Below, piece after piece: positions 2,840 through 64,000 of a stretch of DNA of 64,000 nucleotides. The DNA is from an uncultured virus (IMG/VR IMGVR_UViG_3300037400_002380) (lineage: Duplodnaviria; Heunggongvirae; Uroviricota; Caudoviricetes): IMG/VR virus record IMGVR_UViG_3300037400_002380; one strand, given 5' to 3'. A model generated the notes under the pieces. That model was not told where the DNA came from, searched no databases, and was given only the letters and a program-made list of their open reading frames with translations. Positions within the stretch are counted from its first letter, which is position 1; each line of letters opens with the position of its first letter. A program made the position numbers and the translations under genes.

Positions 2840-2850
2840 GTAGAAAGATT

Positions 2851-3438
2851 ATGAGCTACTATGTGTATAATGGTGAGATTTATCACCATGGTATTTTGGG
2901 CCAAAAATGGGGTGTAAGGCGCTTTCAAAATTATGATGGTACTTTAACCAATAAGGGCAAAAACAGAAATACCAGATACTACAAGAAAGCCCTTAATCGA
3001 GTTGACAAGGGAATCGCTGAAGAAAGCAGAGACTATAGTGACGAACGATCGGTGGCTATAAAACTGCGCACAAAAAGTGACAGACTACTTACAAAAGCTG
3101 GTAATGTTCTTGACACTAACCCGAATAAGGCAGACCGCTATTACTCTAAAATTGATAAGTTGGAAAAGAAAGCAAACGAGCACGATGCTAAAGCTAATGC
3201 GCATATGTCCAACATAATCAAAGGTCAAGAGTTGACACAGTGACTTCTTAACGAAGCGTCCAGTAAAGGTTATGCTGTTACCTCAAAAGTCACCTCACGA
3301 AACGTAACCAAAGGACATGAATACGTTCTTAACACTTTATCCGTATTAGGCGCGTATGCTATTGGTTCACCGATCGCAGTTACAACGCGTTCCAGGATGT
3401 ATGGAACTAAGTACACCGTTAAGAAACCAAAGGACTAA
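2851..3438 (+). pseudogene. HHG-motif protein interrupted by an in-frame TGA at 3241-3243 (nonsense allele or read-through)
   Basis: EIYHHGILGQKWGVRR start; the frame stays open for 64 codons after TGA, to TAA 3436-3438, 6 nt before terminase. Confidence 0.6.
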
Positions 3439-3444
3439 TTCAAA

Positions 3445-5196
3445 ATGGCACTATCGAACACTGCTGTACCAAAATACTACGGCATGTTTCGAGATGCCGT
3501 AATTCGAGGAGAGATACCAGTAAATGAGCAGATCTCTCTGGAGATGAATAGGATTGATGCTTTGATTGCTGATCCTAAAATGTACTACGATGAATCGGTT
3601 GTTGAAGGCTGGATTTACTTTTGTGAAAACGAAATGACGCTTACTGATGGAGGTGACGTTCACGTCCTCTTTTCTTTTAAGCTTTGGGCCGAACAACTTT
3701 ATGGATGGTACTACTTCATTGAGAAGAGCATTTACAAACCTAATGGAAATGGTACTGGCGGACACTACGTTACAAAACGTATAAAGAAACGCCTCACCAA
3801 TATACAGTATCTTATTGTAGGACGAGGGGCGGCGAAGTCGTTATATGACACATTTGTCCAGGCATATACTCTTGTTGTTGACAGATCGACCACACATCAG
3901 ATAACTACTTCTCCCACTATGAAACAGTCTGAAGAAGTTATGCAACCTTTCGCCACAGCTATAACAAGAGCTAGAGGCCCAGTCTTTAAGCTCATGACTC
4001 AAGGCTCTATTCAGAACACTACTGGAGATAGAATGAATAGAAAGCATCTCTATTCTTCTAAAAAGGGTATTGAGAACAATTTCACGAATAGCTATTTGGA
4101 AATCAGGCCTCTAAAAATCGACAAACTTCAGGGGTTACGAGTCAAATGTGCTACATTAGACGAATGGCTTTCTGGAGATCTTCCGGAGAATCCAATAACG
4201 GCCATACAGCAGGGTGGCGCTAAAGGTCTTGCTCCGGATTACATCATACTAGCCACTAGTTCCGAGGGAACTACACGAAACGGTATTGGCGATACTATTA
4301 AGATGGAGCTTATGGACATCCTAATGGGCAAATACTACAACCCGCATGTTTCTATTTGGTGGTATAAGCTTGATGACATAAAAGAAGTCGACAATCCAGA
4401 GATGTGGGTTAAAGCCAATCCGAACTTGGACTTGACAGTTTCTTACGAAACTTATCAAGAAGAAGTTCAGAAGATGAAAAACGTCCCAGCAGCAAGGAAT
4501 GAGATTCTCGCAAAGAGATTCGGAATTCCTATGGAAGGTCACACTTACTTCTTTACTTACGAGGAGACAATTCTCCACAAGAAAAGAGAGTTTTGGCAGT
4601 TACCTTGTTCCCTTGGTGGAGACTTGTCTATGGGCGACGACTTCTGTTCTTTCACATTTCTTTTTCCATTTCAAAATGGGTCTTTTGGAGTTAAGACTCG
4701 CAACTACATTACAGAGCATACTCTATTCAAACTGCATCCTTCGTTACGTCAACAGTATGACAAATTTATAGACGAGGGAAGTTTGATTGTTATGCCCGGA
4801 ACAGTGCTCGACATGATTGATGTTTACGAAGATCTTGTCAAGTGTATTGACGACAATCAATACGATGTAAGGTGTTTTGGTTATGACCCGTATAATGCAA
4901 AAGATTTTGTTGAAAGATGGGCAAAAGAAAATTCTCCGTACGGGATAGAGAAGGTGATTCAGGGAGCCCGTACGGAATCGGTTCCTCTTGGTGAACTTAA
5001 GAAGCTTGCAGAAGAACGACTTTTATTGTTTGACGAAGAATTAATGAAGTTTGCAATGGGTAACTGCATCACGTTAGAGGATACAAATGGTAACAGAAAA
5101 TTGTATAAGCGCAGGCATGAACAGAAAATTGATGCCGTTGCGGCTATGATGGATGCCTACGTGGCATATAAGTTGAACAGAGAGGCATTCGAATAA
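3445..5196 (+). CDS. terL: Terminase large subunit
   Basis: Walker A-like VGRGAAKS, Walker B ATLDEW, WVKANPNL, nuclease GGDLS and KIDAVAAMMDA. Confidence 0.95.
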   Translation: MALSNTAVPKYYGMFRDAVIRGEIPVNEQISLEMNRIDALIADPKMYYDESVVEGWIYFCENEMTLTDGGDVHVLFSFKLWAEQLYGWYYFIEKSIYKPNGNGTGGHYVTKRIKKRLTNIQYLIVGRGAAKSLYDTFVQAYTLVVDRSTTHQITTSPTMKQSEEVMQPFATAITRARGPVFKLMTQGSIQNTTGDRMNRKHLYSSKKGIENNFTNSYLEIRPLKIDKLQGLRVKCATLDEWLSGDLPENPITAIQQGGAKGLAPDYIILATSSEGTTRNGIGDTIKMELMDILMGKYYNPHVSIWWYKLDDIKEVDNPEMWVKANPNLDLTVSYETYQEEVQKMKNVPAARNEILAKRFGIPMEGHTYFFTYEETILHKKREFWQLPCSLGGDLSMGDDFCSFTFLFPFQNGSFGVKTRNYITEHTLFKLHPSLRQQYDKFIDEGSLIVMPGTVLDMIDVYEDLVKCIDDNQYDVRCFGYDPYNAKDFVERWAKENSPYGIEKVIQGARTESVPLGELKKLAEERLLLFDEELMKFAMGNCITLEDTNGNRKLYKRRHEQKIDAVAAMMDAYVAYKLNREAFE

Positions 5197-5864
5197 TGTA
5201 TTACGATGAACTATACCACCATGGCGTAAAAGGCCAACGATGGGGTGTAAGACGATTTCAGAATAAAGATGGATCGTTAACTAGATTAGGACAGAAAAGA
5301 GCTGACAGACAAGCTAAAGCGGCTGCAAAAGAATATGAAAAGAGGGCGGCAAGAGGAGAGTATAGTCTTGATTCAAAGTTCGAGTCTATTTCCGGAAGAA
5401 CTGTTAAATCTGGACGAAGACGTTCCGGTCCTCTTGACGGAGCAGGTGCTGCTATAGCTGGTTTAGCTGCTGTTACTGCTGGAGCTAAAATACTTTCCGG
5501 AACAAAAGGAAAGGGCGACTCCGCTTTTAAGCCAGAAAAGAAAGGTGGATCACCAGCAGAAAAAATATTGAATAATACGAGTAGTATTACAAGCTCTTTA
5601 GCAAAAGGTCTTGGCGACAGATCCAACGCCAAGGCTGCTAAAGAAGCAAATAAAATAGATCTTTCTCACGCGTCTGATCAAGAAATTAGAGATTATGTGA
5701 ATCGATACAATCTTGAGAAGCAATTCAGGCAGATCACTGCTGAACAATACAGTAGCGGGCATGCACGAACAAAAGAAATGATTGAGACTATCGGCGCTAT
5801 AGCAAGTGTTGGCGCGTCTATTGCCGGAATAATAGTTGCGTATAACAAAATTAAGAACGGATAA
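5196..5864 (+). CDS. HHG-motif protein (DUF7211-like)
   Basis: ELYHHGVKGQRWGVRRFQNKDGSLT; hydrophobic C-terminal helix. Confidence 0.7.
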   Translation: MYYDELYHHGVKGQRWGVRRFQNKDGSLTRLGQKRADRQAKAAAKEYEKRAARGEYSLDSKFESISGRTVKSGRRRSGPLDGAGAAIAGLAAVTAGAKILSGTKGKGDSAFKPEKKGGSPAEKILNNTSSITSSLAKGLGDRSNAKAAKEANKIDLSHASDQEIRDYVNRYNLEKQFRQITAEQYSSGHARTKEMIETIGAIASVGASIAGIIVAYNKIKNG

Positions 5865-12719: not shown

Positions 12720-15700
12720 GCAATACGGTTGACGAACGCGTTGTTAAAATGCAATTTGACAATGCGCAGTTTGAAAAAAATGTGCAGACTTCTCTCGGCA
12801 CATTAGGTAAGTTAAAAGAAGCTTTAAAATTTGACAAAGTTGATTTGTCTAGTGTGGCTTCTAATATCGAAAAGATAACTGAAAAAGTTAGTGGTATGGG
12901 TGGTGTTTTTGACACCGCTATGGATCGTATTGCTAATAAGATCGTAGATATTGGCGAAAAAATAGCTACGGAGTTTGTTTTTAATCCTCCGACAGACGGT
13001 TTTAAGGAATACGAACTTAAGATGGACTCTCTTAAGGTCATCATGGAGAGTTCACATGAAAGCCTGGAAACGGTTAATAAGTACCTTAATGAACTGAATA
13101 AGTATTCGGATCAAACCATTTATAGCTTTTCAGACATGACGGCAAGCATTGGTAAATTTACAAATGCCGGCGTCGATCTTAATACTGCTGTAAACGCTAT
13201 TAAGGGTATTGCTAACGAAGCGGCTCTTGCTGGCGCAAGTACAAACGACGCGTCAAGGGCTATGTATAACTTTGCTCAGGCTTTGAGCGCCGGCTCTGTA
13301 AAACTTATTGACTGGAAATCGATTGAGAATGCCAACATGGCGACTCAGGAGTTTAAGAACGAACTGATCAACACGGCTGTTGAGCTTGGAACGTTAACAA
13401 AAGTTGGCGATGATTATATTTCGACCACCACCAACATGCAAGGAAAAATCTCTGAAACCTTTAATGCAACCAAAGGCTTTAACGATTCTTTAGCATATCA
13501 ATGGATGACAACGGATGTTCTGACTAAGACTCTTGGGCGGTACGCCGACGCAAACACGGACGTCGGTGCCAGGGCAACCAAAGCCGCAACAGAAGTTAGA
13601 ACATTTTCGGCGATGATGGATTCCTTGAAAGAGGCTGTCGGTTCAGGTTGGGCTGAAACATGGGAACTTATATTTGGTAACATGGAAGAAGCCACAGAAA
13701 TGTGGACAGCAGTTAACGATGTTCTTAGCGGTTTCATAGATAAGTTTTCTAGCGCTAGAAATGATCTTCTTAAAGGTTGGCGTGAAGGAGATATTGACGG
13801 GAGAACAAAACTCCTTGAAGGTTTAGCTAATGTTTTTAAGATTCTTGGAAACGTGGTTAAACCCTTTTCTGATGCTATGAAAGTTCTCTTTCCTCCTATG
13901 ACGGCGGAAAGATTAAAAGATATTACTATAAAATTTGCAGATTTCACTGAGAAAGTTAAAAACATTACAGAAAACTTTCCTATGAAGTTGTTCGAGCCTA
14001 AAGATACAAATGCTGTTCAGAAGGGCTTGGGAACTGCTGCCGAAAAAGCAGAAAAATTTAATAAGAATACTAAGGCAATTGCAAAAGACATTAAAGATGC
14101 CTGGGATGGTACTGCTGAGTCTTCTGATGATGCTACTAAAACTGCTGTAGACAATTTGGAAGAAATTCAGGATGCTGTAAAAAAGACTATTAATGGCGAT
14201 TTTGGAAATGACCAAGAACGAGTAGACGCGTTACAGAAAGCCGGATTCGATCCAGATCAGATCCAGGATTATGTTAACAAAGTTCGTGAACTTTCTAACG
14301 GGTCTTGGGATCTTTCTGACGAAATGATGAATGCCGCAGCGGAATCGCTCGGTTTGATTCAGAAAACATCGGATGCTACTGATGAAACTAAAGAAAAAGT
14401 AGATGAAGCAAAAGATTCTTTAGAGGAATATAACGTAGAAGTTTCCGAAATAACGAAGAATGGAAATATTCTTACTAGTATTCTTGTTTCTATTGGTTCG
14501 ATTATTAAGAATGTTCTTGGATCTGGAGTTAAAATTATTGGAGCTGTCGGAGAAGCATGGAGAGAATCTTTCTCGCCGGTTACGATTTCTCTTGCCCAAC
14601 TGAAAAAGTTTGGCATGGCATTAGATAATGTTTCTAAAAGCTTTAAAATTTCTGACGGCGCTCTTGAAAAGATTAAGAATACTTTTAAGGATTTCTTTAC
14701 TGTTTTGAAGACGGTTTCCGATTTAGTTGTGCGGTTCGTAATTCAAAATGCGCCACTTGCTTTGGCGATTTTAAAAGACGTTGGACGAATTATAGGCGGA
14801 GTTGTTCTTGGAATAGCTTCGTTTGTGGCGTCTGTTGCTTCTGCTATAGCTAAATCCGGAATTCTTCAGAAGATACTCGACGGCGTTAACATGGCCTTTA
14901 GAGCTCTTCGTAAAATAATAGCAACTGTCGCTGATGTGTTCGGCTTTTTAGGTGAAAAAATCAGCAAAGGAATCGATTATATTCGCGACTATGTTAAGCA
15001 GCATGAGCTTTTAGCTAAAATTGCTAATGCAATACCTAATCTGTTTAATAAAGCCGGAAACAAAATAACAGAATTTGGTAACAAGCTAGCTAAATCTCTT
15101 GGAGTTGAATCTTTAGAAAAGTTTAAAGCTAAGCTCGGCGAAGCAATCGATAGACTGTCTCAGAATTTCCTAATACCAGGTTTCGAACGTTTTGCTACGT
15201 TTATTGAAGAACTGGTAACTGGAAACATGTCCATGGACAAAGTCACGAAGTTCTTTTCAGATCTCGGAAAAGATATTCGAGATTTTGCCAAAAGCATATT
15301 TACAAACAAAGACGGAACTCCTTCTATATTTGATCATATTAGTAATTTCTTTAAGGGTGCCGATTTAACCGGAAAACTTAAGAATTTTGGAGGTATTCTC
15401 AAAGACATAGGCGCTGCTATAAAGAGTTTCTTTAGCGGACTTGTCGGTAAAGATTTCAGTTTTGAGAACATTCTTCCAGATAAGATATTTAACCTGTTCG
15501 GGTCGTTTGCCGATAAAGGTGAAAAAGCAAAGAATAAACTCAAAGATGTTGGTGATGGTATTGCCGACACAGTTACTAATCTGAATCCCTTTAAAAAGAA
15601 GGGGGCGGCAAAAGATGTTGTCGATACAGTTAAAAACGTTGAAGAGCTTGAAAATTTAAGCGAAGTGATGAAGCCTTCCATCACAGATAGGATTAAGAAC

Positions 15701-18700
15701 TTCTTCAACGGTTTTAAGAATCTCGCAACAGATTCGTTTAAGAAATTTTCGGATTTCCTTTCTAAGCTCGACTTCGTTAAAGTTCTTACAGCAGCTAGAA
15801 GCATCAAAGTTATAACGTCCATATTTAACGGCATAAAGCTTACTAAATCGTTTAGCGGTATGGCCGACAATATTGGGGGGTTCTTCGAAAAGCTTAAAGA
15901 CGACGGTTTAGGAATAAATCTGGTACCAGAAGAAAGCAAATTCACAAAAATGGTGAAAATTGCTGGCGCTATATATTTGGTAGCAAAAGCCATTTCGATG
16001 ATAGCAGAGATACCTAAAGATCGTTTTAAATCTGCTGTTGCGGTTGTCGCAGGAATAGCAGCAGTTCTGACAGGTGTAACCATCGCGCTTGAAAAGATTA
16101 AGCCAGCCGAAGGTGCTGATCTCGGTGGTGCTTCCAAACTGATGCTCGGAATGGCCATAGCTATATTTATTATAGCAAAAGCCATGGAAATCATAGGGCA
16201 GCAGGATGCAAACACTCTAATAGCCGGTGGTATAGTCATAGCAGTTCTTGTTGATATTCTTACAGAAGCTGCTAAATCGCTTAAAGAGCTTAAGCTAAGT
16301 ACCGCGGATGTTGCCGCCCCGTTGGCTTTCGCTCTTGCTGTTCGAATTCTCATCGGGGCTGTAGTAGCGTTTGGCAAAATGGATCGAGGCACCTTGCTAC
16401 AGGGCGGGGTTTGCGTATTCATAGCGCTTGGAATACTACAGGGATCTGCTCAGGCTTTGAAAGATCTTAAGCTTGGACCGGCTGATGTCGCTGCTCCGTT
16501 AGCCTTTGCAATAGCCGTTGGCTTGTTGCTGCTATCTATTTTGGCATATGCTTTAGTTCCAGTTCCGGTGCTTAAAAAAGGCTTCGTTGCTGTTCTTATA
16601 GCATTAGCGTTACTCGCAGCAGCATCTAATTCTTTGCGAGCAATGAAAGTTTCTGCTGCTGCAGTATTTGCACCATTAGCATTTGCTCTAGCTTTGCTAA
16701 TTCTTGTCGGTGCTATTGCAGCGTTGGGATTAATACCAGATGACGTATTTCCTACGGCGTTTGACCGTATGACATCATTGGCGATATTGCTCGGCGGTTT
16801 CATGCTTGTTCAGAGTTTAATCGCAAAGTATATTGGCGGTCAGGTCGGGGCTGCAGACGTATTAAGTCTTATAGCTTTCGCGGTGGCAATAGATTTGCTT
16901 GCTGTCGCTTGCCTTGTCCTGAGTGTTGTGCCTCCAGATAGACTGGCGTCTGCTGTTAACGCTATATTGTGGCTCGGTTTCGTGGTTGGCGCATTAGCAG
17001 CAATAATGGCTATATCTAGCAGTATTTCTAATGTGAATCCGTCTAATATATTCGGACTCATTACTGCTGTGGGAGCAATTTTGTTGCTTAGTATTGCTAC
17101 GGCTGCTCTAGCGATGATCCCGAAACCATTGCTAGAAAAAGGTAGGCAGTCAATAGAAGCTTTAGCATTAGTTGTTATAGCTTTGATGTTTGCACTGTCT
17201 GTGTCGAGTGATATTTCCGCAGTAAATCCTTCAAACATTATTGGACTTGTAGTAGCTGTTGGTTCGATATTACTCTTAGGTATCGCTACAATAGCGCTGT
17301 CAATGATCCCGAAACCGTTGCTCGAAAAGGGCAAGCAGGCAGTAGAAGCTCTTGCGTTGGTTATCGTCGCCATAATGTTTGCCATGTCAATGTCCAGCGA
17401 TATTTCATCGATCGGAGCATCCAACATTGCGGCATTGCTGGTTGCGGTAGGTTCTATATATCTTCTTGCGATTGCCGCGATTGCGTTGGGGCTTGTTCCA
17501 CGTCCGGTTTTAGAGCAAGGTGTAGGAACCATAGTCATTCTTGGAATTATATTAGGTGCTATAGTTGGCGTAATGGGTGCTTTTAATTTCAATGTAGCAT
17601 CCGTTCTTGCTCCATTGGCTGTTGTTTTGGCGGTGATGGTACTTGTCGAAGCGGTAAAGCAGCTTGGAGCAATGGAATCCACTGACATGGCTCAGGGAGT
17701 GTTTGGCGTTGTCGCCCTTCTTATGGGATTGGCAGTTGCTATAGGGGTTTTAGCCACCTTTGCCGGACCTATTTTGGTGCTTGCTGCATCGTTTGTTGTA
17801 TTTGCAACAGGCGCTTTACTGCTTGGCGCCGCGTTTTTAATGGCTGCTACTGGAGTCATGAATATTGTCACGGCGCTGTCTCTTCTTGCAGTCATACCGA
17901 CGCAACAGTTGGCCATGAACATGATTGTTTTCTCAACGGCTTTGCTTGTACTTATTGGTGTATTTGCCGGTTTAGTGGCTATTCTGATGTTTATTCCAGC
18001 TGCAATACCCGTTCTTTTAGCGTTAGGCGCAGGCGTATTAATGCTCGGTACTGGTTTATATTTGGCAAGTGCTGCTATCGAGAAATTTGTTAATGTCGCA
18101 GGACAAATCGGCGGAGCAATAGCATCGGCGGTTTCTTCTGTAGTAAAGCATGCACCAGAAATAGGGCACGCTATTAAGAATGCGCTGTCTAGTGCTGCTA
18201 AGTATATTGCTTCTCACGTTGGTGAATTTGCATCTAAAGCAAAAGAACTTGCAATTGGTATTGCTAAGGGTATTAAAGAGAAAGCACCCGAAATACTCGC
18301 GAAAGTTAAAGAGGGTATAACAAAAGCTGGCGAATTCATTACAAGCCATGCTCCAGAATGGTTGGCCAAAGGTGCAGAACTTTTGGGTAAATTAGTAGAA
18401 GGCATTGCAACGAACGCCCCCAAGGTGCTTGAAAAAGTCGAAGAGGGCATTACAAACGCTGTTAATTTCGTCAAAGAGAAAGCTCCAGAATGGCTCAGTG
18501 CTGGTAAAGATCTTGTTCAGGGATTAATTGACGGTGCCGGCGAGAAGATCGGAGAAGTTGGCACAAAAGCTAAAGAAATTGGAAAGAAGGCCCTTGACGC
18601 TATAAAGAATTTCTTAGGCATAAAGTCTCCTTCTACTAAATTTAAAGAAGTTGGTAATAACGCCGGCCAGGGTCTTATTGACGGCGTCGATGAGAAAGGC

Positions 18701-32178: not shown

Positions 32179-32255
32179 TGTTTAAGTAGCTCGACAACCG
32201 GGCCCTGTGAGTATCGAAATGATATTTGCAGGGCCTTTTTGTTTTTGGAGGACTA

Positions 32256-33587: not shown

Positions 33588-33674
33588 AAAATTAGTAACA
33601 AGTAGACTGTGGCTCTCTGTAAGTATCCAAATGATATTTGCAGGGAGTCTTTTGTTTTTCCAGGAGGGATAAGA

Positions 33675-33980
33675 ATGGATAAGAAATTCACAATTACTAT
33701 TCCGTACGAGAATGATTTTTCAGATGAACAAAGAAGGGATCTTGCCTTGTTCGAGTTCCTGTGCCAGAAAAATTACGTTAACGATAAGCCTAAAGCGTAT
33801 GGCACACTTTCTCTGAACGAAGTTATGAGAGATTTTCATTACCTAAAGTGTTACCGATATTCGTATCGCTGGGGCTGGGATTTGCATAAGCACGGTTTCA
33901 TAGACGTTAATCTGATTCCAAATCCTGCGAGCGATTATATTTGGTATCTGAAATTCACAGCTTATGACATTGTTGGATAA
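33675..33980 (+). CDS. Hypothetical protein
   Basis: RBS AGGAGG before ATG (MDKKF...). Confidence 0.5.
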   Translation: MDKKFTITIPYENDFSDEQRRDLALFEFLCQKNYVNDKPKAYGTLSLNEVMRDFHYLKCYRYSYRWGWDLHKHGFIDVNLIPNPASDYIWYLKFTAYDIVG

Positions 33981-34194
33981 GGAGGGAACATGATCGACAG
34001 GATTCTTACTTTTATATTTGGCGAACTCACGGCCGCAGAAATTTGGGAAGCATGCGGTCAGCAGGTTAATGATACTGGCGAGATCGATCTGCTTATGGCT
34101 ATTCAGTATTTCACAGAACGTAAATGGAACGAAAGATTCTGGAGAATGATCGGTCGCTGATATTCTGATCCGCAAAATTTGCAAAGAGTATTGT

Positions 34195-34250
34195 GAGAGA
34201 CATTGACGGCTTAATTGAGGCTAGATCGGAAACGATTGTCGATGTCTCTC
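34195..34250 (+). ncRNA. Candidate small three-way-junction RNA
   Basis: Starts right after the motif at 34171; 13-bp closing stem gagagacattgac/gtcgatgtctctc; two inner hairpins, one with a GAAA loop. Confidence 0.5.
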
Positions 34251-34442
34251 TTAACTTTTCGTTCACTTATATTTTTTACAAAGGAGGTCGAAATTGAAAA
34301 AATGGGGTGCAATTCAATTGATTGCAGAAGCAGTAACAGGTATTGCCTCGGTCATCAGCATCGTGGCAGGTTTTAAAAACGACGAGGATCTTGACGAAAG
34401 AGTAAGAAGAATTCTCGACAATGACTCAGAGGAGGAAGAATA

Positions 34443-34634
34443 ATGAAAAATTCTACAAAGTATTTTCTTAAAAGCCTGGCAGCCTGGGCGGTTTTTGTCG
34501 CTGGAGCTATCGCGTATAATCAGTGTGGTTATGAGAACGGCTACGACGATGCTCTTGAGGGCGCTACAAAGGCTGCAAAAGAGCACGGTCACGATATCGA
34601 GTTTATTAAAACTAAAAAGAGAAAGGAGAAATAA
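34443..34634 (+). CDS. Hypothetical membrane-anchored protein
   Basis: ORF with N-terminal TM in a tightly packed operon. Confidence 0.5.
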   Translation: MKNSTKYFLKSLAAWAVFVAGAIAYNQCGYENGYDDALEGATKAAKEHGHDIEFIKTKKRKEK

Positions 34635-34636
34635 TT

Positions 34637-34930
34637 ATGAAGTTCCCTAAGATCAAAATCAGAAAAGGTGCTGGAATCAGACTTCTTGCATCAACGGCAT
34701 TATCGTTTGGAGCAGCTTTCTTCGGCTATTACCGCTATAAGCAGGGACTTGAGGAAGAGTGGGAGTACCTCACGGGTAAGGCCGATGAAAAAAGTAATAC
34801 GTTTTTTACAAACATGGACGATCCAGACAAGGATCGCGACAGGTATCTGATGTTAGGTAAAGAGAGGTCTTCCGAGTTATGGAAGATTGCTCAGGAGACA
34901 GTGAACAATGATCAGGAGAGCAACGACTAA
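34637..34930 (+). CDS. Hypothetical membrane-anchored protein
   Basis: RBS AAAGGAG; N-terminal TM. Confidence 0.5.
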   Translation: MKFPKIKIRKGAGIRLLASTALSFGAAFFGYYRYKQGLEEEWEYLTGKADEKSNTFFTNMDDPDKDRDRYLMLGKERSSELWKIAQETVNNDQESND

Positions 34931-35189
34931 GGGCAAAATAATAAACCGAATGTGTTTATATTTGTCGGAACTCGGTGATCCAGCACGCAGTTCATCACCA
35001 CATGGTGTCGTGGCTAGATCATATGCAAAGTCGACGGTGTTGGAATTAATAAAGGAGGTGGTGCATTCCGACACCGATCCGGCTTTGGTTGTTTCAGAAT
35101 TTATTAAAAAAGTTAACAAACGTGACGGGTTTATATTTAGTGTTGCATACGACATTGCCGTAGACCTGTACGATCGTGTGTTTTTATGA
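34908..35189 (+). CDS. Hypothetical protein
   Basis: Overlapping operon gene. Confidence 0.5.
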   Translation: MIRRATTKGKIINRMCLYLSELGDPARSSSPHGVVARSYAKSTVLELIKEVVHSDTDPALVVSEFIKKVNKRDGFIFSVAYDIAVDLYDRVFL

Positions 35190-35200
35190 AAGGAGTTTAA

Positions 35201-35416
35201 ATGAATACTGATAGCGTTACTATTTTTCTGGATAAGAGCCCTCTTTACATAGCTAACCAGCTTATTACGGCTATTATAGACGATGAGAGGAAACCTTCTC
35301 AGGAAGCAATCGACACGCTTGATGAAATCGCGGCATATATTCGTACTTGGGCAAGTTTTAGACCCTACGAAGAAGATAAGCGTCCGTTTCGTTACAGTTA
35401 TAGACCGGCACGATAA
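35201..35416 (+). CDS. Hypothetical protein
   Basis: RBS AAAGGAG. Confidence 0.5.
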   Translation: MNTDSVTIFLDKSPLYIANQLITAIIDDERKPSQEAIDTLDEIAAYIRTWASFRPYEEDKRPFRYSYRPAR

Positions 35417-35442
35417 TCCGCAAAGTTTGCAATGACTATTAT

Positions 35443-35518
35443 GGAAAGACTTCGGTCCAATGGGTGGACGCTACCAGCAATGGTAGAGAAGGTGTGTTCG
35501 AATCTACCAAGTCTTTCC
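35443..35518 (+). ncRNA. 76-nt tRNA-like cloverleaf RNA without a canonical anticodon loop
   Basis: 10-bp closing stem, D-like arm, ctacca-GCAA-tggtag arm, GTTCGAATC T-loop arm; motif upstream and U-tract downstream. Confidence 0.6.
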
Positions 35519-35744
35519 TTTTCTTTTTCACTTTTATATTTTCAAAGAAAGGAGTAACTATGTTAAAAGTATTCAAAACTATTTGTGGAGCAGTAGCAGT
35601 CTACGTTGAGTTCAAACTTGTCAAAGGGTATATCGCGCATCTCATGACAAAAGAGATGTATAAAAGAGGCGTAGACGATCTTCACATCAACGGTATGGAG
35701 CTTGTAGAACTGATTAAGAATGATATTTTCTGAGAGGCGTAACA

Positions 35745-36509
35745 ATGAGCAAATTGAGAGCGCTTAGAGCTGGTCTGATCAAACTCGGTCCGCAGATTGC
35801 TACTGGCATTGGGATCGGATTAGCTCTTCTTGCGGGCATCAAGGCTGTAGAGAAAACACCTGAAGCGATTAAACTCATCGAAAAGAAAAAGGAGGAAGAG
35901 CATAAAGATGAGTTGACACCGATGGAGACAGTGGAAGCAACATGGAAATGTTATATTCTGCCTATCATCATGTTCATTATCGCCTGCGTTCTGATTATCG
36001 GAGGGCAGAGAGTATCTACAAGGAGGGCATTGGCGGCAGCAACCGCCTGCTCGCTATCGGAAAGCAAGTTGCAAAAGATACTCGAAACGGAGAAGGCGTT
36101 CCTAGGTGATAAGAAAATGGACGAACTCCAGACCGAACGAGCACGATATGAAATAAAAAACAATCCGCCAGGTGAGGACATAGTTATCACCGGACGTGGA
36201 GACGCTTTGTTTTATGACGTACTCCATAAAAGATATTTCAAATCAGATCCGACGTACGTTGACAAGGCCATTTCGAGACTTAACTTCAGATTGTTAGATG
36301 AAATGTATGTTTCTGTAAACGACTATTGGAGTGAGATGGGCCTTCCAACAACAAAACTCGGAGAAATGCTCTGTTGGTCAGTTAATGACGGATCCATAGA
36401 TCCTGGTAAAACTGTAATTTTGGTTGACTCAGGACCATATGAAGGCTATCCGTGCAGAGTAATGGACTTTTATGTTTGTCCGAGGCATAACTACAACGAT
36501 CGTTATTAA
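35745..36509 (+). CDS. DUF6353-like conserved phage protein
   Basis: Two TM-like helices; LFYDVLHKRYFKS and VSVNDYWSEMGL motifs. Confidence 0.55.
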   Translation: MSKLRALRAGLIKLGPQIATGIGIGLALLAGIKAVEKTPEAIKLIEKKKEEEHKDELTPMETVEATWKCYILPIIMFIIACVLIIGGQRVSTRRALAAATACSLSESKLQKILETEKAFLGDKKMDELQTERARYEIKNNPPGEDIVITGRGDALFYDVLHKRYFKSDPTYVDKAISRLNFRLLDEMYVSVNDYWSEMGLPTTKLGEMLCWSVNDGSIDPGKTVILVDSGPYEGYPCRVMDFYVCPRHNYNDRY

Positions 36510-36574
36510 TTCGCAATAATAACGAACGCTATTATGAAACTGGTAACTTCGTCGAATACGAAAGGAGAATTGCT

Positions 36575-36814
36575 ATGGACGAAGAAAGAACTACGATGGA
36601 AACTGCTGAGGTTGTAAATAATGATATTCTGGATCAGGGAGCACCGGTTCCTGGCGATGAATCCGAGGAAGGACTTCCGTTTGGCGTATATGCTATTGCA
36701 TTCGGCGTCGGCGTCCTTATTGGAAAGGGAGTTAAATCAGTGTTTAACCTGATCACAGGTAAGAACAAAAAGTACGCCGAAGTGGACCACGGGAAGTTCA
36801 CTCGTGTTAAGTAA
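36575..36814 (+). CDS. Hypothetical membrane protein (cassette)
   Basis: Motif at 36512, RBS AAAGGAG, hairpin at ~36853. Confidence 0.55.
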   Translation: MDEERTTMETAEVVNNDILDQGAPVPGDESEEGLPFGVYAIAFGVGVLIGKGVKSVFNLITGKNKKYAEVDHGKFTRVK

Positions 36815-36953
36815 AACAAAATTATATTCTAAACGAAGTAACTGAAAACACGGAGAGGTTGTGCAACATATGCAACCTCTCCTTTTGTTTTCGAAAAGTG
36901 GATACGAGGGATAAGCAATTCCAACATAGTTCAAATCAAAAAGGAGGTTCGAC

Positions 36954-37283
36954 ATGCGTAAAGGTTTAGTTATATTCGGAACACTTATTGTAGCAGGTGT
37001 GGCCGGCATCATTGCGTATAAAAAACACAAAAAATCCGAGGAGGAAGATTTAGCAAAAACAATTGCAAAGACCATTAAGGATAAGGTTGATGAAGCAACC
37101 GTTGAAAAAGATATTAAGGACATGATCGATAAGAAGGCTAAACGGATTGTTGATCAGATTTCTTTGGAAAAGTCGATCATTCGTTTTGCAGACAGAATGA
37201 CTGACAAAATTATATTTAAAGCAAAACGCGCGATCGAGAAGAAAGTCGCCCATTACATGTTCTGGGCGGAATGGCTCGAATAG
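36954..37283 (+). CDS. Hypothetical membrane-anchored protein
   Basis: RBS AAGGAGG; N-terminal TM. Confidence 0.55.
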   Translation: MRKGLVIFGTLIVAGVAGIIAYKKHKKSEEEDLAKTIAKTIKDKVDEATVEKDIKDMIDKKAKRIVDQISLEKSIIRFADRMTDKIIFKAKRAIEKKVAHYMFWAEWLE

Positions 37284-37298
37284 GAAGGAGAATTATAT

Positions 37299-37889
37299 TT
37301 GGCTGACTACAGAAACGCAGGAAAGGCCGATAACGAACAAAAGACTTCTAGTAAAAAACTGGAAAAGGTCGTAAAGGGCTCCGTAAAACCAAAAAAGAAG
37401 TCTGGGTTCCGTAAGTTCATGGACGCATTTGTCCAGGAAGATATTGGCACTATTAAAGATTATGTATTTACAGAGGTTCTGATTCCGGCTATGAAAAAGA
37501 CATTTTCGGATATTGTCAACAATAGCCTGGACATGCTTCTTTGGGGTAAGTCTGGAGGTAGACGAACAAGAGGCAGCGCTGAACGAATCTCGTATAGAAG
37601 CTACTACAGAGATGGTGGCGTAAGCAGGGAGCCCGAAAAAAAGCGCAGGTACGACTATGATGAAATTGTTTTGGATAGCAGAGAAGAAGCAGAGGAAGTT
37701 CTTACAAGAATGAACGAGCTTCTTGAAGATTACAAAATGGTTAGCGTAGCAGACCTGTATGACCTGGTTGGTATCACTGGCAAAGTTACAGACAATAATT
37801 TCGGATGGACCGATCTGCGTAACGCATCGGTTACCCGTGACAGAGACGGATATTTGATTAACTTACCCAGAGCTATTGCTTTGGATTGA
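37299..37889 (+). CDS. Conserved hypothetical phage protein
   Basis: SREEAEEVL...VSVADLYDLVG...FGWTDL motif. Confidence 0.65.
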   Translation: MADYRNAGKADNEQKTSSKKLEKVVKGSVKPKKKSGFRKFMDAFVQEDIGTIKDYVFTEVLIPAMKKTFSDIVNNSLDMLLWGKSGGRRTRGSAERISYRSYYRDGGVSREPEKKRRYDYDEIVLDSREEAEEVLTRMNELLEDYKMVSVADLYDLVGITGKVTDNNFGWTDLRNASVTRDRDGYLINLPRAIALD

Positions 37890-59012: not shown

Positions 59013-60377
59013 ATGAACTCTAAGCTTGTAACGACAACCATCTTATCACCCAATCATTCGGGAAAGAGGTGCCACAAAGTAACCCGCATAACGCCTCACT
59101 GCATGGTTGGACAGCTAAGTGCTACTGAATGTGGGCATCTCTTTGCGAATGCTCACTACGAGGCGTCAAGCAACTATGGTATCGGGACTGGTGGCGTAAT
59201 TGGTCTGTATGTTGACGAGGACAACCGGTCATGGTGCTCAAGCTCTGCAGACAACGACAACCGTGCTATCACCATTGAATGTGCATCCGACACTAAGCAT
59301 CCTTACGCCATGAACCAGCAGGTATGGAATTCGCTTGTGGAACTCTGCACTGATATTTGTGTGAGGTATGGCAAGACTAAGACGATCTGGTTCAACGACA
59401 AGGCTACGACCCTTGCTTATGTGCCAAAAGACAATGAAATGATATTTACAGCCCATCGGTGGTTTGCTGCTAAGGCGTGTCCTGGTGATTGGCTGTACAA
59501 AAGGATGGGCAAATTGTCTGAAGAAGTCAATAAAAAGCTCTCTCAGACTACGTTTTGGCCAGAAAAAGAGATCGAACGGCCTAAAACAGGGGTGATCTAT
59601 GATACAGAAGAGGACCGCGAGAGGGATATCTGGCACTTTTTCAAGGTCAACAGTGACTTCAACGACTTCGGAATCGCTGGACTTATGGGAAATTTATATT
59701 CTGAAAGCGCTCTTAGACCCAACAATCTGCAGAATTCTTTCGAGAAGAAGCTGAAAATGACCGATAAGTCCTATACAACGGGTGTAAACGACGAAACTTA
59801 TAGCCGTGAGCAGTTTATCAACGATGGCGCTGGCTATGGATTGGCTCAGTGGACCTTCAGAACACGGAAAGCTGCCCTTTATGACTTCATTTTGGGTGGT
59901 GCGAACGGTCATTTGGCCTCGATCGACGATTTATATTTGCAGTGTGCGTTCCTTCTGAAGGAATTGGTGCAGTACAAAGAGGTTTACAAGGTCCTTTCCA
60001 AGGCTGTCAGCGTCAAACAGGCGTCTGATATTGTCCTGACACAGTTCGAAAAGCCTGCTGATCAGAGTAATTCGGTCAAAAACAAGCGTGCGGCCTTCGG
60101 AAAAGTCTATTATGACAAGTATTCCGACGCTAAAAAGGACGTCGTGAAGGAAAATCTGGGCTTTTATATTCAGTATGGCGCCTTCAGCACGAAGAAAAAC
60201 GCTGAAAAGAGACTTGCTGAGATCGAAAAACACGGTTTTGAGGGAAAAGTTGAGAAATTTGACGGCTATTATCGTGTAATTCATGGATATTTCAAGGATC
60301 GAAGTGAACTTGATGGCATTGTTTCGGCTGCAAGAAGTAAGAAGTTCGATGTTATTGTCAAAGAAAGGAAGGTTTGA
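59013..60377 (+). CDS. Endolysin: amidase_2 + phage-lysozyme-like + SPOR domains
   Basis: ITPHC, SSNYGIG, AITIECA, HRWFAAKACPG; AGLMGNL..ES, GYGLAQWT, FEKPA; IQYGAFSTKKNA. Confidence 0.85.
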   Translation: MNSKLVTTTILSPNHSGKRCHKVTRITPHCMVGQLSATECGHLFANAHYEASSNYGIGTGGVIGLYVDEDNRSWCSSSADNDNRAITIECASDTKHPYAMNQQVWNSLVELCTDICVRYGKTKTIWFNDKATTLAYVPKDNEMIFTAHRWFAAKACPGDWLYKRMGKLSEEVNKKLSQTTFWPEKEIERPKTGVIYDTEEDRERDIWHFFKVNSDFNDFGIAGLMGNLYSESALRPNNLQNSFEKKLKMTDKSYTTGVNDETYSREQFINDGAGYGLAQWTFRTRKAALYDFILGGANGHLASIDDLYLQCAFLLKELVQYKEVYKVLSKAVSVKQASDIVLTQFEKPADQSNSVKNKRAAFGKVYYDKYSDAKKDVVKENLGFYIQYGAFSTKKNAEKRLAEIEKHGFEGKVEKFDGYYRVIHGYFKDRSELDGIVSAARSKKFDVIVKERKV

Positions 60378-62038
60378 TAGCTATGTTGTGGTATAGAGTA
60401 CAAATTGGAGCCTATGCTCTGAAGAAATCTGCTGAAAAAGTGTCCGTCGACCTGATCGAGAAGGGGTTTAAGACCGCTATCGTCCATGAAGGACTGCTTT
60501 ACAAGGTCAGAGTCGGCAGTTTCCAGGATAAAGCGAAGGCCGAGAAGGTTCTGGCACGTGTCCATGAGCATAAAAACTACAGAAAAGCGAAGATTCTTGA
60601 GTGGGACGATGGCGTAAAGATCGGTGAAAAGCACGGAACCGGCGTGATTATTCGTGAAAACGAGGCTAATCAGGTCCTCACCATGATCGAAAACAGATAT
60701 TTGGACCGCGATGACGCTCATAAGAGGGTTATGGCGGACTTCAATGCGCTTGCGGACAAGGTCGGAAAGCCTCATATGAAGGACACCAGTGGATGGTGTA
60801 CAGAAACCCTGGTGTCTGCGTTCAATCTTTGTGGTCTTTTGGACCTTGTTGGGTATGCTACAGGCGCTCCTGCTCTGAAAAAGAATGCTAAAGAGCGTGG
60901 TACGTGGATCAGTGGGACTCCGGATCACTACGAACCCGGTGATATTTGCGTTTATCAGAGTGATGCCGGCGACCCTAACCATGTAGAAATCAGTATTGAT
61001 CAGGAATGGAACTATACTGGCAACCGTAATGGTGGATGCCATAAGCGTAAAAAGACTGATCGACACAGCAAACTCAACGGCGTGATCAGACCTAAATACA
61101 AGACTATTGATATTCCGGTTGATGACGACGATACGGCTTTGGTCGATTACAATCCCAGGATCGATCTTGTAGCTATCTGGCTCAGTGAGACCCATGAGAG
61201 CAAGTATGGTGATGCTCAGGTCTTTATTGAGTATGGTCCTGACGACAAGACCATTGCCCATGCTGTGCTTGTGGATACTGGTCAGAATGGATGCGACACC
61301 ATTGCAAAGCTTAAGAAACTTGGGGTTAAGACTCTGGATGCCGTTGTGATCTCTCATGCCCATGGCGATCACTATGGATATTTGAAAGAGATTCTTAATC
61401 AGTTCAAGGTTCTGCATCTGTATTTGCCTGGGATTGCGGGTCTTAAGAAGTATCAGAAGAGCTATGCTACAGCCATTCAGAATCAGGAAACGAGGGCTAA
61501 GAAGCTCGGTATTCCTGTCACTTATATGACTACTGGATCGTCGTTTACCATCGGACACATCGAATGTGAGTGCGTTTATCAGGTTCTTGCCAGTGATCTG
61601 AGCGAGCACGACAACCATCACTTCGTCAATAACCAGTCCACTGTATTGATATTTACTTTGGAAGGTGTTGGTAAGGTTCTGTTAACTGGCGATCTGAGTA
61701 ATCCTGGAAACAGGGTTGTTATGAAGAAAGTTCCTCGTGAATATTTGCAGGCTGACATTGCCAAGTGCGGATGGCATGGTGATGGTAATGCTATGACCAT
61801 TGACTGGGCCAAGTTCATCGGTGCTTGGGCTTGGTACTGGAATTATCACCATGCTATGCGTAAGGGCGGACGTCAGAATACCTTAAAGAAATTGAAGAAT
61901 GCCGGGGTTCTTGAGAAACATATCTACAGGAACTATGAAGATGGCGACATCACCTTCTCCTACAAGAACGGATCCTGGACTATTACCAAGTCCAAAGACA
62001 GTAAGAACCATGAGGTAGTTAAGTCCAGGTTCACTTGA
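60374..62038 (+). CDS. SPOR + CHAP-like + metallo-beta-lactamase-fold (ComEC/Pce-like) hydrolase
   Basis: YRVQIGAY / YKVRVGSF; WC....S...PGDI...HV; LVDTG, ISHAHGDHYG, NNQS, LLTGD, WHG. Confidence 0.75.
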   Translation: MIAMLWYRVQIGAYALKKSAEKVSVDLIEKGFKTAIVHEGLLYKVRVGSFQDKAKAEKVLARVHEHKNYRKAKILEWDDGVKIGEKHGTGVIIRENEANQVLTMIENRYLDRDDAHKRVMADFNALADKVGKPHMKDTSGWCTETLVSAFNLCGLLDLVGYATGAPALKKNAKERGTWISGTPDHYEPGDICVYQSDAGDPNHVEISIDQEWNYTGNRNGGCHKRKKTDRHSKLNGVIRPKYKTIDIPVDDDDTALVDYNPRIDLVAIWLSETHESKYGDAQVFIEYGPDDKTIAHAVLVDTGQNGCDTIAKLKKLGVKTLDAVVISHAHGDHYGYLKEILNQFKVLHLYLPGIAGLKKYQKSYATAIQNQETRAKKLGIPVTYMTTGSSFTIGHIECECVYQVLASDLSEHDNHHFVNNQSTVLIFTLEGVGKVLLTGDLSNPGNRVVMKKVPREYLQADIAKCGWHGDGNAMTIDWAKFIGAWAWYWNYHHAMRKGGRQNTLKKLKNAGVLEKHIYRNYEDGDITFSYKNGSWTITKSKDSKNHEVVKSRFT

Positions 62039-62930: not shown

Positions 62931-63102
62931 TATTTTGGTTTTGTGCTTGAATGGGCCTCGCAGCTTTGCGGGGCTCTTTTCTTTTGCTATTTTTCTCTTC
63001 GCAATAATTACAGTTCCTTTTATGAAAGGAAGAGAGTATAAAGTGCCAAATTTGACACTTCTCTTCCTTTTCGTTTTTCTGGATATTTGAAAGGAGTATT
63101 AA

Positions 63103-63399: not shown

Positions 63400-63928
63400 G
63401 GGCAAACATGCCTTTCTTGGTGCGAGTAAGTATCACTGGATATTTTACGACGATGCAAAAGTCGCAGAAGTATACAAGAGAATGCTTGCCACTCAGAAAG
63501 GAATAGAACTTCATGCGTTTGCTGCCCAGTGCATCAAGCTTAGACAAAAGTTGCCTCCGTCTAAGAAGACCTTGAACAAGTATGTAAATGATGCTATTGG
63601 GTATCGCATGAAGCCGGAACAAATTTTGTATTATTCTCCAAACTGCTTTGGCACAGCGGATGCTATTTCATTCAATAACAATTTACTTAGGATCCACGAT
63701 CTTAAGACAGGTGTTATACCGGCACACATGGAACAGCTTGTAGTGTATGCTTCATTGTTCTGTCTTGAGTACGGTGTTAAACCAGGGTCTATTGATTTTG
63801 AACTTAGAATCTATCAATCAGATGACATTTTAATTTCCAATCCAACTGTTGAGGACATTGCTCCGGTTATGGACAAAATCATAACATTTGACAGAATCAT
63901 TAATGATATTTCCAAGGAGGAAGAATGA
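63371..63928 (+). CDS. PD-(D/E)xK (Cas4/RecB-like) nuclease
   Basis: GIELH, PEQ, GTADAI, IHDLKTG, QL..Y motifs. Confidence 0.75.
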   Translation: MNFNTHSNLEGKHAFLGASKYHWIFYDDAKVAEVYKRMLATQKGIELHAFAAQCIKLRQKLPPSKKTLNKYVNDAIGYRMKPEQILYYSPNCFGTADAISFNNNLLRIHDLKTGVIPAHMEQLVVYASLFCLEYGVKPGSIDFELRIYQSDDILISNPTVEDIAPVMDKIITFDRIINDISKEEE

Positions 63929-64000
63929 TGGCCTTTGAAGAAGATTTTTTGATGCACTATGGAGTTGGCAAACTTGATGGATCTCCTGGAAGAGGTTCTG
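63925..64000 (+). CDS. 5' end of a gene truncated by the window edge, with an LMHYG N-terminal motif
   Basis: RBS AAGGAGG; MMAFEEDFLMHYGVGKLDGSPGRGS. Confidence 0.6.
   Translation, partial: MMAFEEDFLMHYGVGKLDGSPGRGS

Follow-up and report, generated by a model that had tools for sequence, protein, structure and literature searches.

Can a bacteriophage keep the body of a tRNA under selection while giving up the part that decodes? The question is raised by positions 35443-35518 (+ strand) of IMGVR_UViG_3300037400_002380, a 64,000-nucleotide (nt) stretch of DNA from an uncultured Caudoviricetes virus, which we analysed at its full length and refer to here as the window. At this locus, sequence reading and folding revealed a tRNA look-alike with a cloverleaf-shaped fold. 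The original prediction had described it as a 76-nt, tRNA-sized cloverleaf with a GCAA tetraloop in place of the anticodon loop, and the sequence, the fold and the conservation bear this description out. Our results indicate that it is very probably a real, selected and tRNA-derived RNA element that cannot decode and that belongs to an undescribed family. That wider family was missed by the original prediction, as were the start of the element exactly at a phage promoter and its position as the leader of a downstream operon in the clade of the window.

The element reads, in order, GGAAAGACTT-CG-GTCC-AATGGGT-GGAC-G-CTACCA-GCAA-TGGTAG-AGAA-GGTGTG-TTCGAAT-CTACC-AAGTCTTTCC, then TTTTCTTTTTC (Table 1). 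It combines, as first described, a 10-base-pair (bp) stem, a D-type arm, a GCAA-capped 6-bp helix and the T-loop motif GTTCGAATC (located within 35496-35504), and CCA is not encoded; TCCT comes after the acceptor-like strand. An optional fifth A-T pair would extend the D arm to gtcca/tggac. All four helices of a cloverleaf (acceptor, D, anticodon, T) are present. The T arm calls for one correction: its stem in the window copy is no plain 5-bp helix but has one bulge and is irregular (GGUG-(U bulge)-G / C-UACC, five interrupted pairs around the 7-nt loop UUCGAAU). The closing stem of 10 bp contains 4 G-C pairs, encloses a 56-nt multiloop and was not listed by a terminator consensus scan.

The energy of the window cloverleaf was -26.4 kcal/mol vs. 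-27.9 kcal/mol for the minimum-free-energy (MFE) fold, a rival that pairs TGGTAGA with TCTACCA and is separated from it by a gap of 1.5 kcal/mol. A structural switch, in which TGGTAG(A) would pair with either CTACCA copy, was dropped as a candidate because it is not conserved: CCTAC takes the place of the second partner in the related contigs L024 and L082, where the cloverleaf is itself the MFE fold (-30.7 and -27.4, respectively). The + strand fold had a z-score of -3.3, with 2/200 shuffles equally good, and the opposite (-) strand also folded well (z -3.9). Because both strands fold well, we relied on the promoter, the direction of the genes and the T-loop motif to assign the strand.

None of the tRNA searches recognised the window copy, which is what the original prediction had expected of a tRNA finder. 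Specifically, ARAGORN reported 0 tRNA or transfer-messenger RNA (tmRNA) genes in the 64-kb window, Rfam gave no match at the gathering score in the window, and no match of the tRNA clan (CL00001) was present at E<=10 in 35300-35650. For L024, the best tRNA-clan match was tRNA-Sec at 16.9 bits (E 0.65; cut-off 47), aligned on the acceptor and T arms. The anticodon arm of the window has no 7-nt loop on a 5-bp stem; its 16 nt form a 6-bp stem with the 4-nt GCAA loop. A tmRNA or YrlA-type architecture was not found either, with no tmRNA call, no Rfam match and the arms in normal tRNA order. The term non-decoding tRNA-like RNA, used in the original prediction, can be retained for a cloverleaf that is conserved and covarying and whose closed GNRA helix cannot present an anticodon.

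We anchored the search for relatives in IMG/VR on the DNA polymerase (best 80 of at least 594 related loci returned, 79 loci used), and found the element at the same place in L024 and L082, whose polymerases are 87% identical to that of the window. A 21-nt pattern recovered 11 metagenome loci, two of which were contigs of L024/L082 and nine of which were new. The resulting clade comprises 12 contigs, i.e., the window plus 11 related contigs with the element at the same place. With relatives whose flanking genes and polymerase gene reach 68-75%, identity over 35414-35562 is 84-92%. In L111 the 78-nt element is identical to that of the window between flanks of ~70% identity, and among the clade contigs the first downstream gene is one of three different ones.

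No stem-breaking substitution was seen in the 12 contigs. A C-to-T change in the D stem (L082, L104, L112) gives G.U and keeps the pairing, an A-to-G change in the anticodon-position stem (L107, L108) also gives G.U, and an A-to-G change in the T stem of L109 (CCTGC) gives U.G. The GCAA-capped arm is unchanged in 8/12 contigs, with three single-base variants overall; its tetraloop is GCAA or GUAA, always GNRA, and GUAA occurs in L109 and L110, whose T-arm types differ. The variable region takes the forms AGAAG, AGAAA, AGGGA and AGGAA, and the T loop has a single change, in L107. With regard to the T arm, five contigs (L024, L082, L106, L109, L112) have the canonical GUAGG-UUCGAAU-CCUAC and seven have the window type GGUG(U)G/CUACC; both forms pair.

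Translation of the open reading frame (ORF) 35464-35733 across the element had been named as an observation that would speak against a structured RNA. This ORF is the frame of the downstream 57-codon gene running open upstream. The distance from the element to the ATG is 114-118 nt across the 12 contigs, and six of them have an in-frame stop inside the element; because the distances vary and stops occur in 6/12 contigs, the element is not translated as a conserved frame.

Outside the clade, blastn of 35150-35800 against 50,697 phage records gave no match, none of 181 candidates in a protein-anchored genome scan was a host or prophage copy, and the 21-nt pattern had no match in one genome per species of 185,579 species. 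IMG/VR loci found with exact patterns (three element pieces; 0, 5 and 15 loci) were rejected as chance matches, and ARAGORN found no tRNA there. Three further IMG/VR loci with a neighbour protein at 28% identity were also set aside, as no tRNA-like element accompanies their promoter motif and small 5' hairpin.

A covariance model built from 3 copies and searched over 83 sources (1.62 Mb) extended the clade to a family. Its 45 matches at E<=10 were all to the + strand, and 41/79 polymerase-anchored loci contained a match at E<=0.001; 9 further metagenome contigs matched at E 1e-27 or better. Many family loci are near-duplicates, 18 of them sharing one sequence. Complete genomes contained one match each (3/3). 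The cultured Faecalibacterium phage FP_oengus has a match at 2934-3008 that is unannotated in its record and receives the ARAGORN label 'tRNA-???'; the word 'tRNA' is absent from the available part of the paper describing this phage. We define this family of promoter-headed, tRNA-derived units of Oengus-like phages by a promoter motif before the closing stem, tRNA-type D and T arms, a short or variable anticodon arm and one copy per genome, all of which the window element displays. It was found neither in Rfam nor in the literature searched.

Covariation in relatives, which had been suggested as a check, was observed. In an alignment of 32 matches (28 distinct sequences), 95.5% of cells were in standard pairs and 19/25 pairs had changed on both sides, compared with at most 55.8% and 11 in slid controls. 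None of 500 shuffles reached the observed values for four of five measures, and 18/500 did so for further pair types. Family-wide, the closing stem keeps 10/10 pairs, 8/10 with changes on both sides, helix 2 (the D arm) is 100% paired, and all four helices covary, inner arms included. The T loop UUCGAAU, or a one-base variant of it, is kept together with the D-loop GG in 27/28 distinct sequences, the exception being L099.

On Rfam tRNA (RF00005; cut-off 29), the other lineages scored 74.3, 58.8/58.7, 47.9, 45.7, 39.6 and 39.4 bits; six of the seven passed, and L099 and the window clade gave no match. Because its sister lineages score 39-74 bits, the family can be judged from sequence to descend from tRNA genes, with the window clade among the most diverged members. 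What the family has given up is the anticodon loop. Among the 28 distinct sequences, the anticodon arm measures 16 nt in 8, 14 in 11, 15 in 1, 10 in 1 and 17-19 in 7, so that in 21/28 it is too short (10-16 nt vs. 17) for an anticodon loop. The shortened arms differ by lineage (loop/stem: GCAA/6 bp, GCAA/3 bp, CUUC/5 bp, ACUUCC/4 bp, UAAU/5 bp); FP_oengus has the 6-nt loop UUGAUU on a 4-bp stem, and L099 a second, independent GCAA hairpin on a 3-bp stem. The element is thus under selection: it is conserved above its neighbour genes, its changes preserve pairing, and its anticodon loop has been lost repeatedly in sister lineages.

Members that retain a loop do not retain a fixed anticodon. The near-identical bodies of L087 (14645-14723), L086 (14645-14723) and L090 (13593-13671) are called Phe(gaa), Ser(tga) and Leu(tag) by ARAGORN; their only differences lie in the anticodon loop and at one or two stem positions. 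All three called tRNAs have a short variable region; that of bacterial Ser and Leu tRNAs is not short. A scan for further variants of this body gave only L087, L086 and L090. In all three we also observed the promoter motif ahead of the body, a 14-bp closing stem, and helicase and Tad3-like (anti-Thoeris) genes downstream.

The motif noted at 35419 in the original prediction is real and recurs within the window. A weight matrix made from the stretches upstream of family members found 17 sites of at least 14 bits on the + strand and 0 on the - strand of the window; these stand upstream of Shine-Dalgarno/start sequences, and the site at 63075 looks spurious. CGCRAAAWTTRCAA-N6-TATTAT or a close variant precedes every family member read and is followed by a purine-rich start. 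The conserved blocks of the motif are ~5-6 nt apart, a spacing that by our own reading does not appear to fit a sigma-70 promoter. The first base of the closing stem directly follows the hexamer in every lineage read, and the leader preceding the acceptor-like strand measures 3 nt (window, L046, L044), 2 nt (FP_oengus) or 7 nt (L087, 14-bp stem). Because the bases right after the hexamer covary with their partners, they belong to the functional RNA, and the simplest position for its 5' end is at these bases.

The motif is probably read by a YonO-like polymerase. The last 75 bases of the window match the N-terminus of a 907-amino-acid (aa) ORF in the full contig of L024, which is 50% identical to gp55 of FP_oengus, annotated as 'RNA-dependent RNA polymerase'. 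In the available text of one study, gp55 is a putative, YonO-like RNA polymerase and a possible signature of a heterogeneous phage group (10.1101/842583). Neither Pfam on 63 ORFs nor tblastn with FP_oengus gp55 found a polymerase or sigma factor within the window, because the polymerase gene is cut off by the window's end. The available part of the work on YonO itself leaves the promoter that it recognises undetermined, and reports that YonO initiates the SPbeta late operon upstream of 'an unannotated non-coding RNA' (PMC5467207). The element would thereby mark a likely promoter of a YonO-type polymerase.

The element is likely transcribed, as contigs from RNA libraries of two studies cover it: 33980-37456 (3.5 kb), 35440-35785 and, from a size-fractionated library, 35481-35634. 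They bridge the element and the next gene, and three RNA-library runs have one extra T after 35523. No conclusion was drawn from stretches that the RNA runs left uncovered. The contig start at 35440 (run X21) was rejected as a transcription start, since the same run has a variant joining at 35415 and the start is probably an assembly branch.

What follows the element differs among lineages (terminators and second promoters were judged by eye, at four loci). In the window clade and the L046 group, a U-rich tract is followed by a Shine-Dalgarno sequence and a start codon within ~30-40 nt, and in the window clade there is no separate terminator or second promoter after the element. L044 (both copies) and L084 have a canonical terminator hairpin with a U-tract after it, and FP_oengus and L099 have a second promoter-like motif between the element and the next gene.

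Our leading reading of what the RNA does, which we hold tentatively, is that it acts in trans as a mimic of the tRNA shape. The locus would then be a gene for a small RNA, tRNA-derived and non-decoding, that follows directly on one of the phage's own consensus promoters and most likely starts at G35443; where transcription begins and ends and how the RNA acts are inferred. A 7-bp acceptor-like helix and a 3-bp leader-trailer pairing together form the closing stem, which would leave the 5' end fully paired. The RNA itself would be the product, showing its elbow and its acceptor/T helix to a factor that recognises tRNA shape; candidate partners are a tRNA-directed defence nuclease or toxin, RNase P, RNase Z and the CCA-adding enzyme. 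The RNA would stay out of translation and expose no nuclease-sensitive anticodon loop, which would make it a competitive decoy or sponge. In the window clade, read-through transcripts would also carry the element as the 5' leader of the DUF6353 operon, because no terminator or second promoter follows it there.

We rank action in trans first because, in several lineages, the element has its own promoter together with its own terminator or a following promoter; because the elbow nucleotides are kept, though a plain hairpin serves at other promoters; and because closure of the anticodon loop, the site of decoding and the part that nucleases usually target, has occurred repeatedly and in different ways. 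Pressed further, it is a possible but doubtful extension that, in gut Clostridia phages with YonO-like polymerases, the repeatedly sealed tRNA-shaped RNA serves as an uncleavable stand-in that blocks a host factor recognising tRNA shape, such as an immune effector that cuts or modifies tRNA, or RNase P/Z.

Several observations weigh against action in trans. Our analyses singled out no partner. The Shine-Dalgarno sequence and start that follow without a second promoter in the window clade and the L046 group fit a leader acting in cis equally well. The promoters at 1375, 34167 and 62996 also lead into plain or Y-shaped closing-stem structures with U-rich tracts, which suggests a general leader function that has no need of a tRNA shape. 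In our own tRNA numbering, the D-loop GG and TTCGAAT are present, but the window clade has C in place of U at position 8, and position 15 is A where position 48 is G or A; without a 15-48 pair in this clade, tRNA-like tertiary folding is not assured. The acceptor-like stem of the L046/L084 group contains an internal loop, so not every member can mimic the acceptor end. The RNA-library evidence consists of contigs without strand, ends or level, to which DNA carry-over may contribute, and fitting the covariation alignment to the model favours the structure.

Two possible partners also fit poorly. Anticodon nucleases cut the anticodon loop, so that a decoy for them is awkward when the loop they cut is absent; phage tRNAs reportedly escape such nucleases by loop mutations. 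A T-box target is unlikely because there is no anticodon to pair with the specifier.

The strongest alternative is a 5' leader acting in cis, in which the fold would be the first 76 nt of the operon mRNA and would bury the 5' end in a long helix against 5'-end-dependent decay, provide an RNase P/Z cut signal or work as a promoter-proximal attenuator, the closing stem and U-tract being read through by the phage polymerase or with an antiterminator. We consider it possible, if somewhat less likely than action in trans. The two readings are not exclusive, and action in cis is well supported for the window clade itself. It is in keeping with the closing stem that starts directly after the hexamer in all lineages read, with the Shine-Dalgarno sequence and ATG at +27 to +64 after the element in most lineages, and with the RNA-library contigs that join the element to the next gene; T7 gene 10 mRNA offers an analogy, with a 5' stem-loop beginning at +1.

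It is also in keeping with other leaders of the same phage. Four of 16 window promoters (those before 1403-1447, 34195-34251, the element and 63024-63072) lead into a structure whose closing stem is formed from the first base onward, with a U-rich tract after it. The structures at 1403-1447 and 63024-63072 (+) are long hairpins (-19.2 and -17.9 kcal/mol) with a 5' polypurine strand and a U-rich tract after them, and are promoter-proximal, terminator-like leaders. The structure at 34195-34251 (+; motif 34167-34194) is Y-shaped, with a 13-bp closing stem, two inner hairpins (one of them GAAA-capped, ATCG-GAAA-CGAT) and a U-rich tract; L024 and L082 both retain it, showing a two-sided compensatory change and an insertion that is paired. 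This leader and the element share the downstream module CACTTATATTTT...AAAGGAG, a near-copy of the CACTTTTATATTTTCAAAGAAAGGAG region lying at 34252-34290. The leader may represent the tRNA-like unit in a related, further-reduced form. A leader function nonetheless leaves the conservation of the T loop and D-loop GG unexplained, given that a simple hairpin is enough at other promoters, and the promoter-like motif after the element in FP_oengus and L099 and the full terminator in L044 and L084 mean that the next gene need not carry the element.

That the element is instead a decaying phage tRNA gene, drifting, with its conservation due to recent descent or module recombination, is improbable. 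The gradient of Rfam tRNA scores across the family, from 74 bits to none, is in keeping with decay, as are the window T arm, less regular than that of its relatives, and the strongly degenerate L099 and L093; mosaic junctions adjoin the element as well. Drift does not account for an element that is the best conserved part of its neighbourhood and identical in L111, in which pairing survives throughout the 12 contigs and the T arm has been rebuilt, not lost. Nor would it close the anticodon loop differently in several lineages, each time as a stable short hairpin, or keep the tetraloop GNRA in two backgrounds.

We regard as very unlikely a chargeable carrier that would be trimmed, given CCA and aminoacylated by an anticodon-blind synthetase so as to pass its amino acid to a non-ribosomal acceptor. 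An acceptor-like stem and T arm form the 12-bp stack measured by RNase P, RNase Z and the CCA-adding enzyme, and by our own reading the FP_oengus copy has G3.U70; this pair is missing from most lineages and from the window, which has G3-C70, the L046/L084 group has an interrupted acceptor-like stem, the leader-trailer pairing should hinder RNase P/Z, and Pfam found no Fem-type or other aminoacyl-transferase gene among 63 window ORFs. Equally remote is an element acting at the DNA level or in termination alone (a phage attachment site (attP) core resembling a host tRNA gene, an origin, or an odd terminator or insulator), for although a 10-bp inverted repeat runs into a T-run, the FP_oengus element lies 1.5 kb from the integrase gene, and YonO-type polymerases are described in the available text as being without the flap domain used in hairpin termination, so that such a signal could sort host from phage polymerase (PMC5467207), both halves of every helix covary, inner arms too, which neither attP nor a bare terminator needs, the integrase gene is 5.3 kb away in the window, the element is intact mid-contig in complete phage contigs, and no match turned up in the one-genome-per-species search of 185,579 species.

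The RNA in question, which we tentatively take to mimic tRNA in trans, resembles several known systems. With phage tRNA genes (RF00005) it shares the cloverleaf, the four covarying helices, the T loop UUCGAAU and the D-loop GG, and its sister elements score as tRNAs, some of them being called by ARAGORN. It differs in having no 7-nt anticodon loop, C8, a 10-bp closing stem and no CCA; the window element falls under every tRNA threshold, and the 'anticodon' is not conserved among close relatives.

The mascRNA of MALAT1 is a tRNA-like processing signal. The t-elements of plant mitochondria are likewise described, in the available text, as tRNA-like processing signals (PMC1920247). Both are tRNA-shaped non-decoding modules in longer transcripts, in which the top half of the tRNA matters and RNA ends are set via RNase P/RNase Z. 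They are eukaryotic or organellar, whereas the phage module lies at the very 5' end, behind a promoter, with its leader paired to its trailer. The tRNA-like domain of tmRNA and YrlA also have an elbow and an acceptor/T helix without an anticodon and act via tRNA-binding proteins. tmRNA differs in lacking a D-arm helix and having an mRNA part. The arm order of YrlA is circularly permuted relative to tRNA, whereas the phage element has the normal order of D, anticodon-position and T arms. As a non-decoding bacterial tRNA mimic, YrlA/Y RNA is described in the available part of PMC4201824. The T7 gene 10 leader and the SPbeta late operon share with the element a promoter that runs up to +1 and a purine-rich start that pairs with a downstream pyrimidine run, and a YonO-type polymerase occurs in this phage group; stem-loop leaders of that kind are simple hairpins, in contrast to the conserved four-way tRNA-derived fold here. 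The work on AcrIIIA1, in the part available, concerns host tRNA fragments and not a phage tRNA mimic (PMC11662646).

The usual view of tRNA genes in phages is that they help with codon usage or replace tRNAs that host defences have cut. In the present case, a gut and rumen phage lineage that includes the cultured FP_oengus keeps the tRNA body under selection and discards the anticodon. Action in trans would make the RNA a new class of mimic in phage-host conflict and, as a blocking stand-in, an RNA-based counter-defence or takeover device of an undescribed kind. Action in cis would make it the counterpart, in a bacterial virus, of tRNA punctuation or of RNA-stabilising tRNA scaffolds. Such genes are missed or mislabelled as 'tRNA-???' or pseudo-tRNA, as the unannotated locus in the FP_oengus record illustrates.

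Table 1 Coordinates of the tRNA-like element, its promoter and associated features in the window.
Feature	Position	Strand	Basis or remark
Promoter-like motif CCGCAAAGTTTGCAA-N6-TATTAT	35415..35442	+	ends one base before element
Whole tRNA-derived cloverleaf with sealed anticodon arm	35443..35518	+	fold, 12 contigs, family covariation, no tRNA call
Closing stem, 5' strand GGAAAGACTT: 3-nt leader GGA and 7-nt acceptor-like AAGACTT	35443..35452	+	pairs with 35509-35518
D arm GTCC-AATGGGT-GGAC, GG in loop	35455..35469	+	
6-bp helix CTACCA/TGGTAG with GCAA tetraloop, anticodon-arm position	35471..35486	+	16 nt vs. 17
Variable region AGAA, purines only	35487..35490	+	most variable part within clade
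T arm GGTG(T)G-TTCGAAT-CTACC	35491..35508	+	one bulged U
Closing stem, 3' strand AAGTCTTTCC: acceptor-like AAGTCTT, then TCC pairing with leader	35509..35518	+	
U-tract TTTTCTTTTTC, directly 3' of closing stem	35519..35529	+	kept with length changes in 12/12 contigs
Conserved leader CACTTTTATATTTTCAAAGAAAGGAG including Shine-Dalgarno sequence (35549-35554)	35530..35559	+	
57-aa downstream gene, no family found	35560..35733	+	ATG 35560 behind AAGGAG
DUF6353 gene, two predicted N-terminal helices, usual operon neighbour	35745..36509	+	Pfam E 6.5e-41
Other motif sites (~28 nt each)	1375, 28024, 30774, 30954, 31025, 32615, 33262, 34167	+	
Other motif sites (~28 nt each)	44077, 45757, 46138, 48949, 49370, 52226, 62996	+	
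Start of YonO-like single-chain RNA polymerase gene, cut by window end	63925..64000	+	21/24 residues identical to L024 homologue

The window is a nearly whole siphophage genome with all genes on the + strand, including those for terminase, portal, protease, tape measure, integrase, a 1349-aa primase-polymerase, helicase and endolysin. Its polymerase is 56% identical to that of FP_oengus, and the metagenome runs containing window DNA are labelled bovine or other gut. The element sits in a 143-nt gap between ORF 35201-35416 and the 57-codon gene, which is exchanged for other small genes in L024, L082 and L111. The DUF6353 gene lies 0-2 genes downstream of the element in the window, L024, L050, L044, L084, L046 and L081, and ~1 kb downstream in L097; the L087 element is followed by the helicase and Tad3-like gene and the L093 element by a methylase. 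The AlphaFold model of DUF6353 (mean predicted local distance difference test score, pLDDT, 72) has long N-terminal helices and a small mixed C-terminal domain. Foldseek gave this model no PDB match at E<=0.001, and the term 'DUF6353' occurs in 0 papers. Two or three DUF6353 copies were present per phage (window 35745-36509 and 37886-38830; FP_oengus gp15, gp18 and gp22).

Other observations concern parts of the window away from the element. A short DUF7211 motif starts four ORFs around the terminase gene (1473-2078, 2024-2839, 2827-3243 and 5196-5864, +); the Pfam matches (E 3e-6 to 2e-4) are at or just under the cut-off and mark a repeated N-terminal tag. The ORF 60374-62038 (+), which adjoins the endolysin gene, combines an N-terminal SPOR domain with a metallo-beta-lactamase fold, an unusual constituent of a lysis module. 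Long terminator-like hairpins at 32200-32236 and 33611-33649 (+) are copies of each other (GGGCCCTGTGAGTATCGAAATGATATTTGCAGGGCC type), and hairpins of this type recur elsewhere in L024 (~15280-15327 and 15909-15963), forming a small repeated terminator family.

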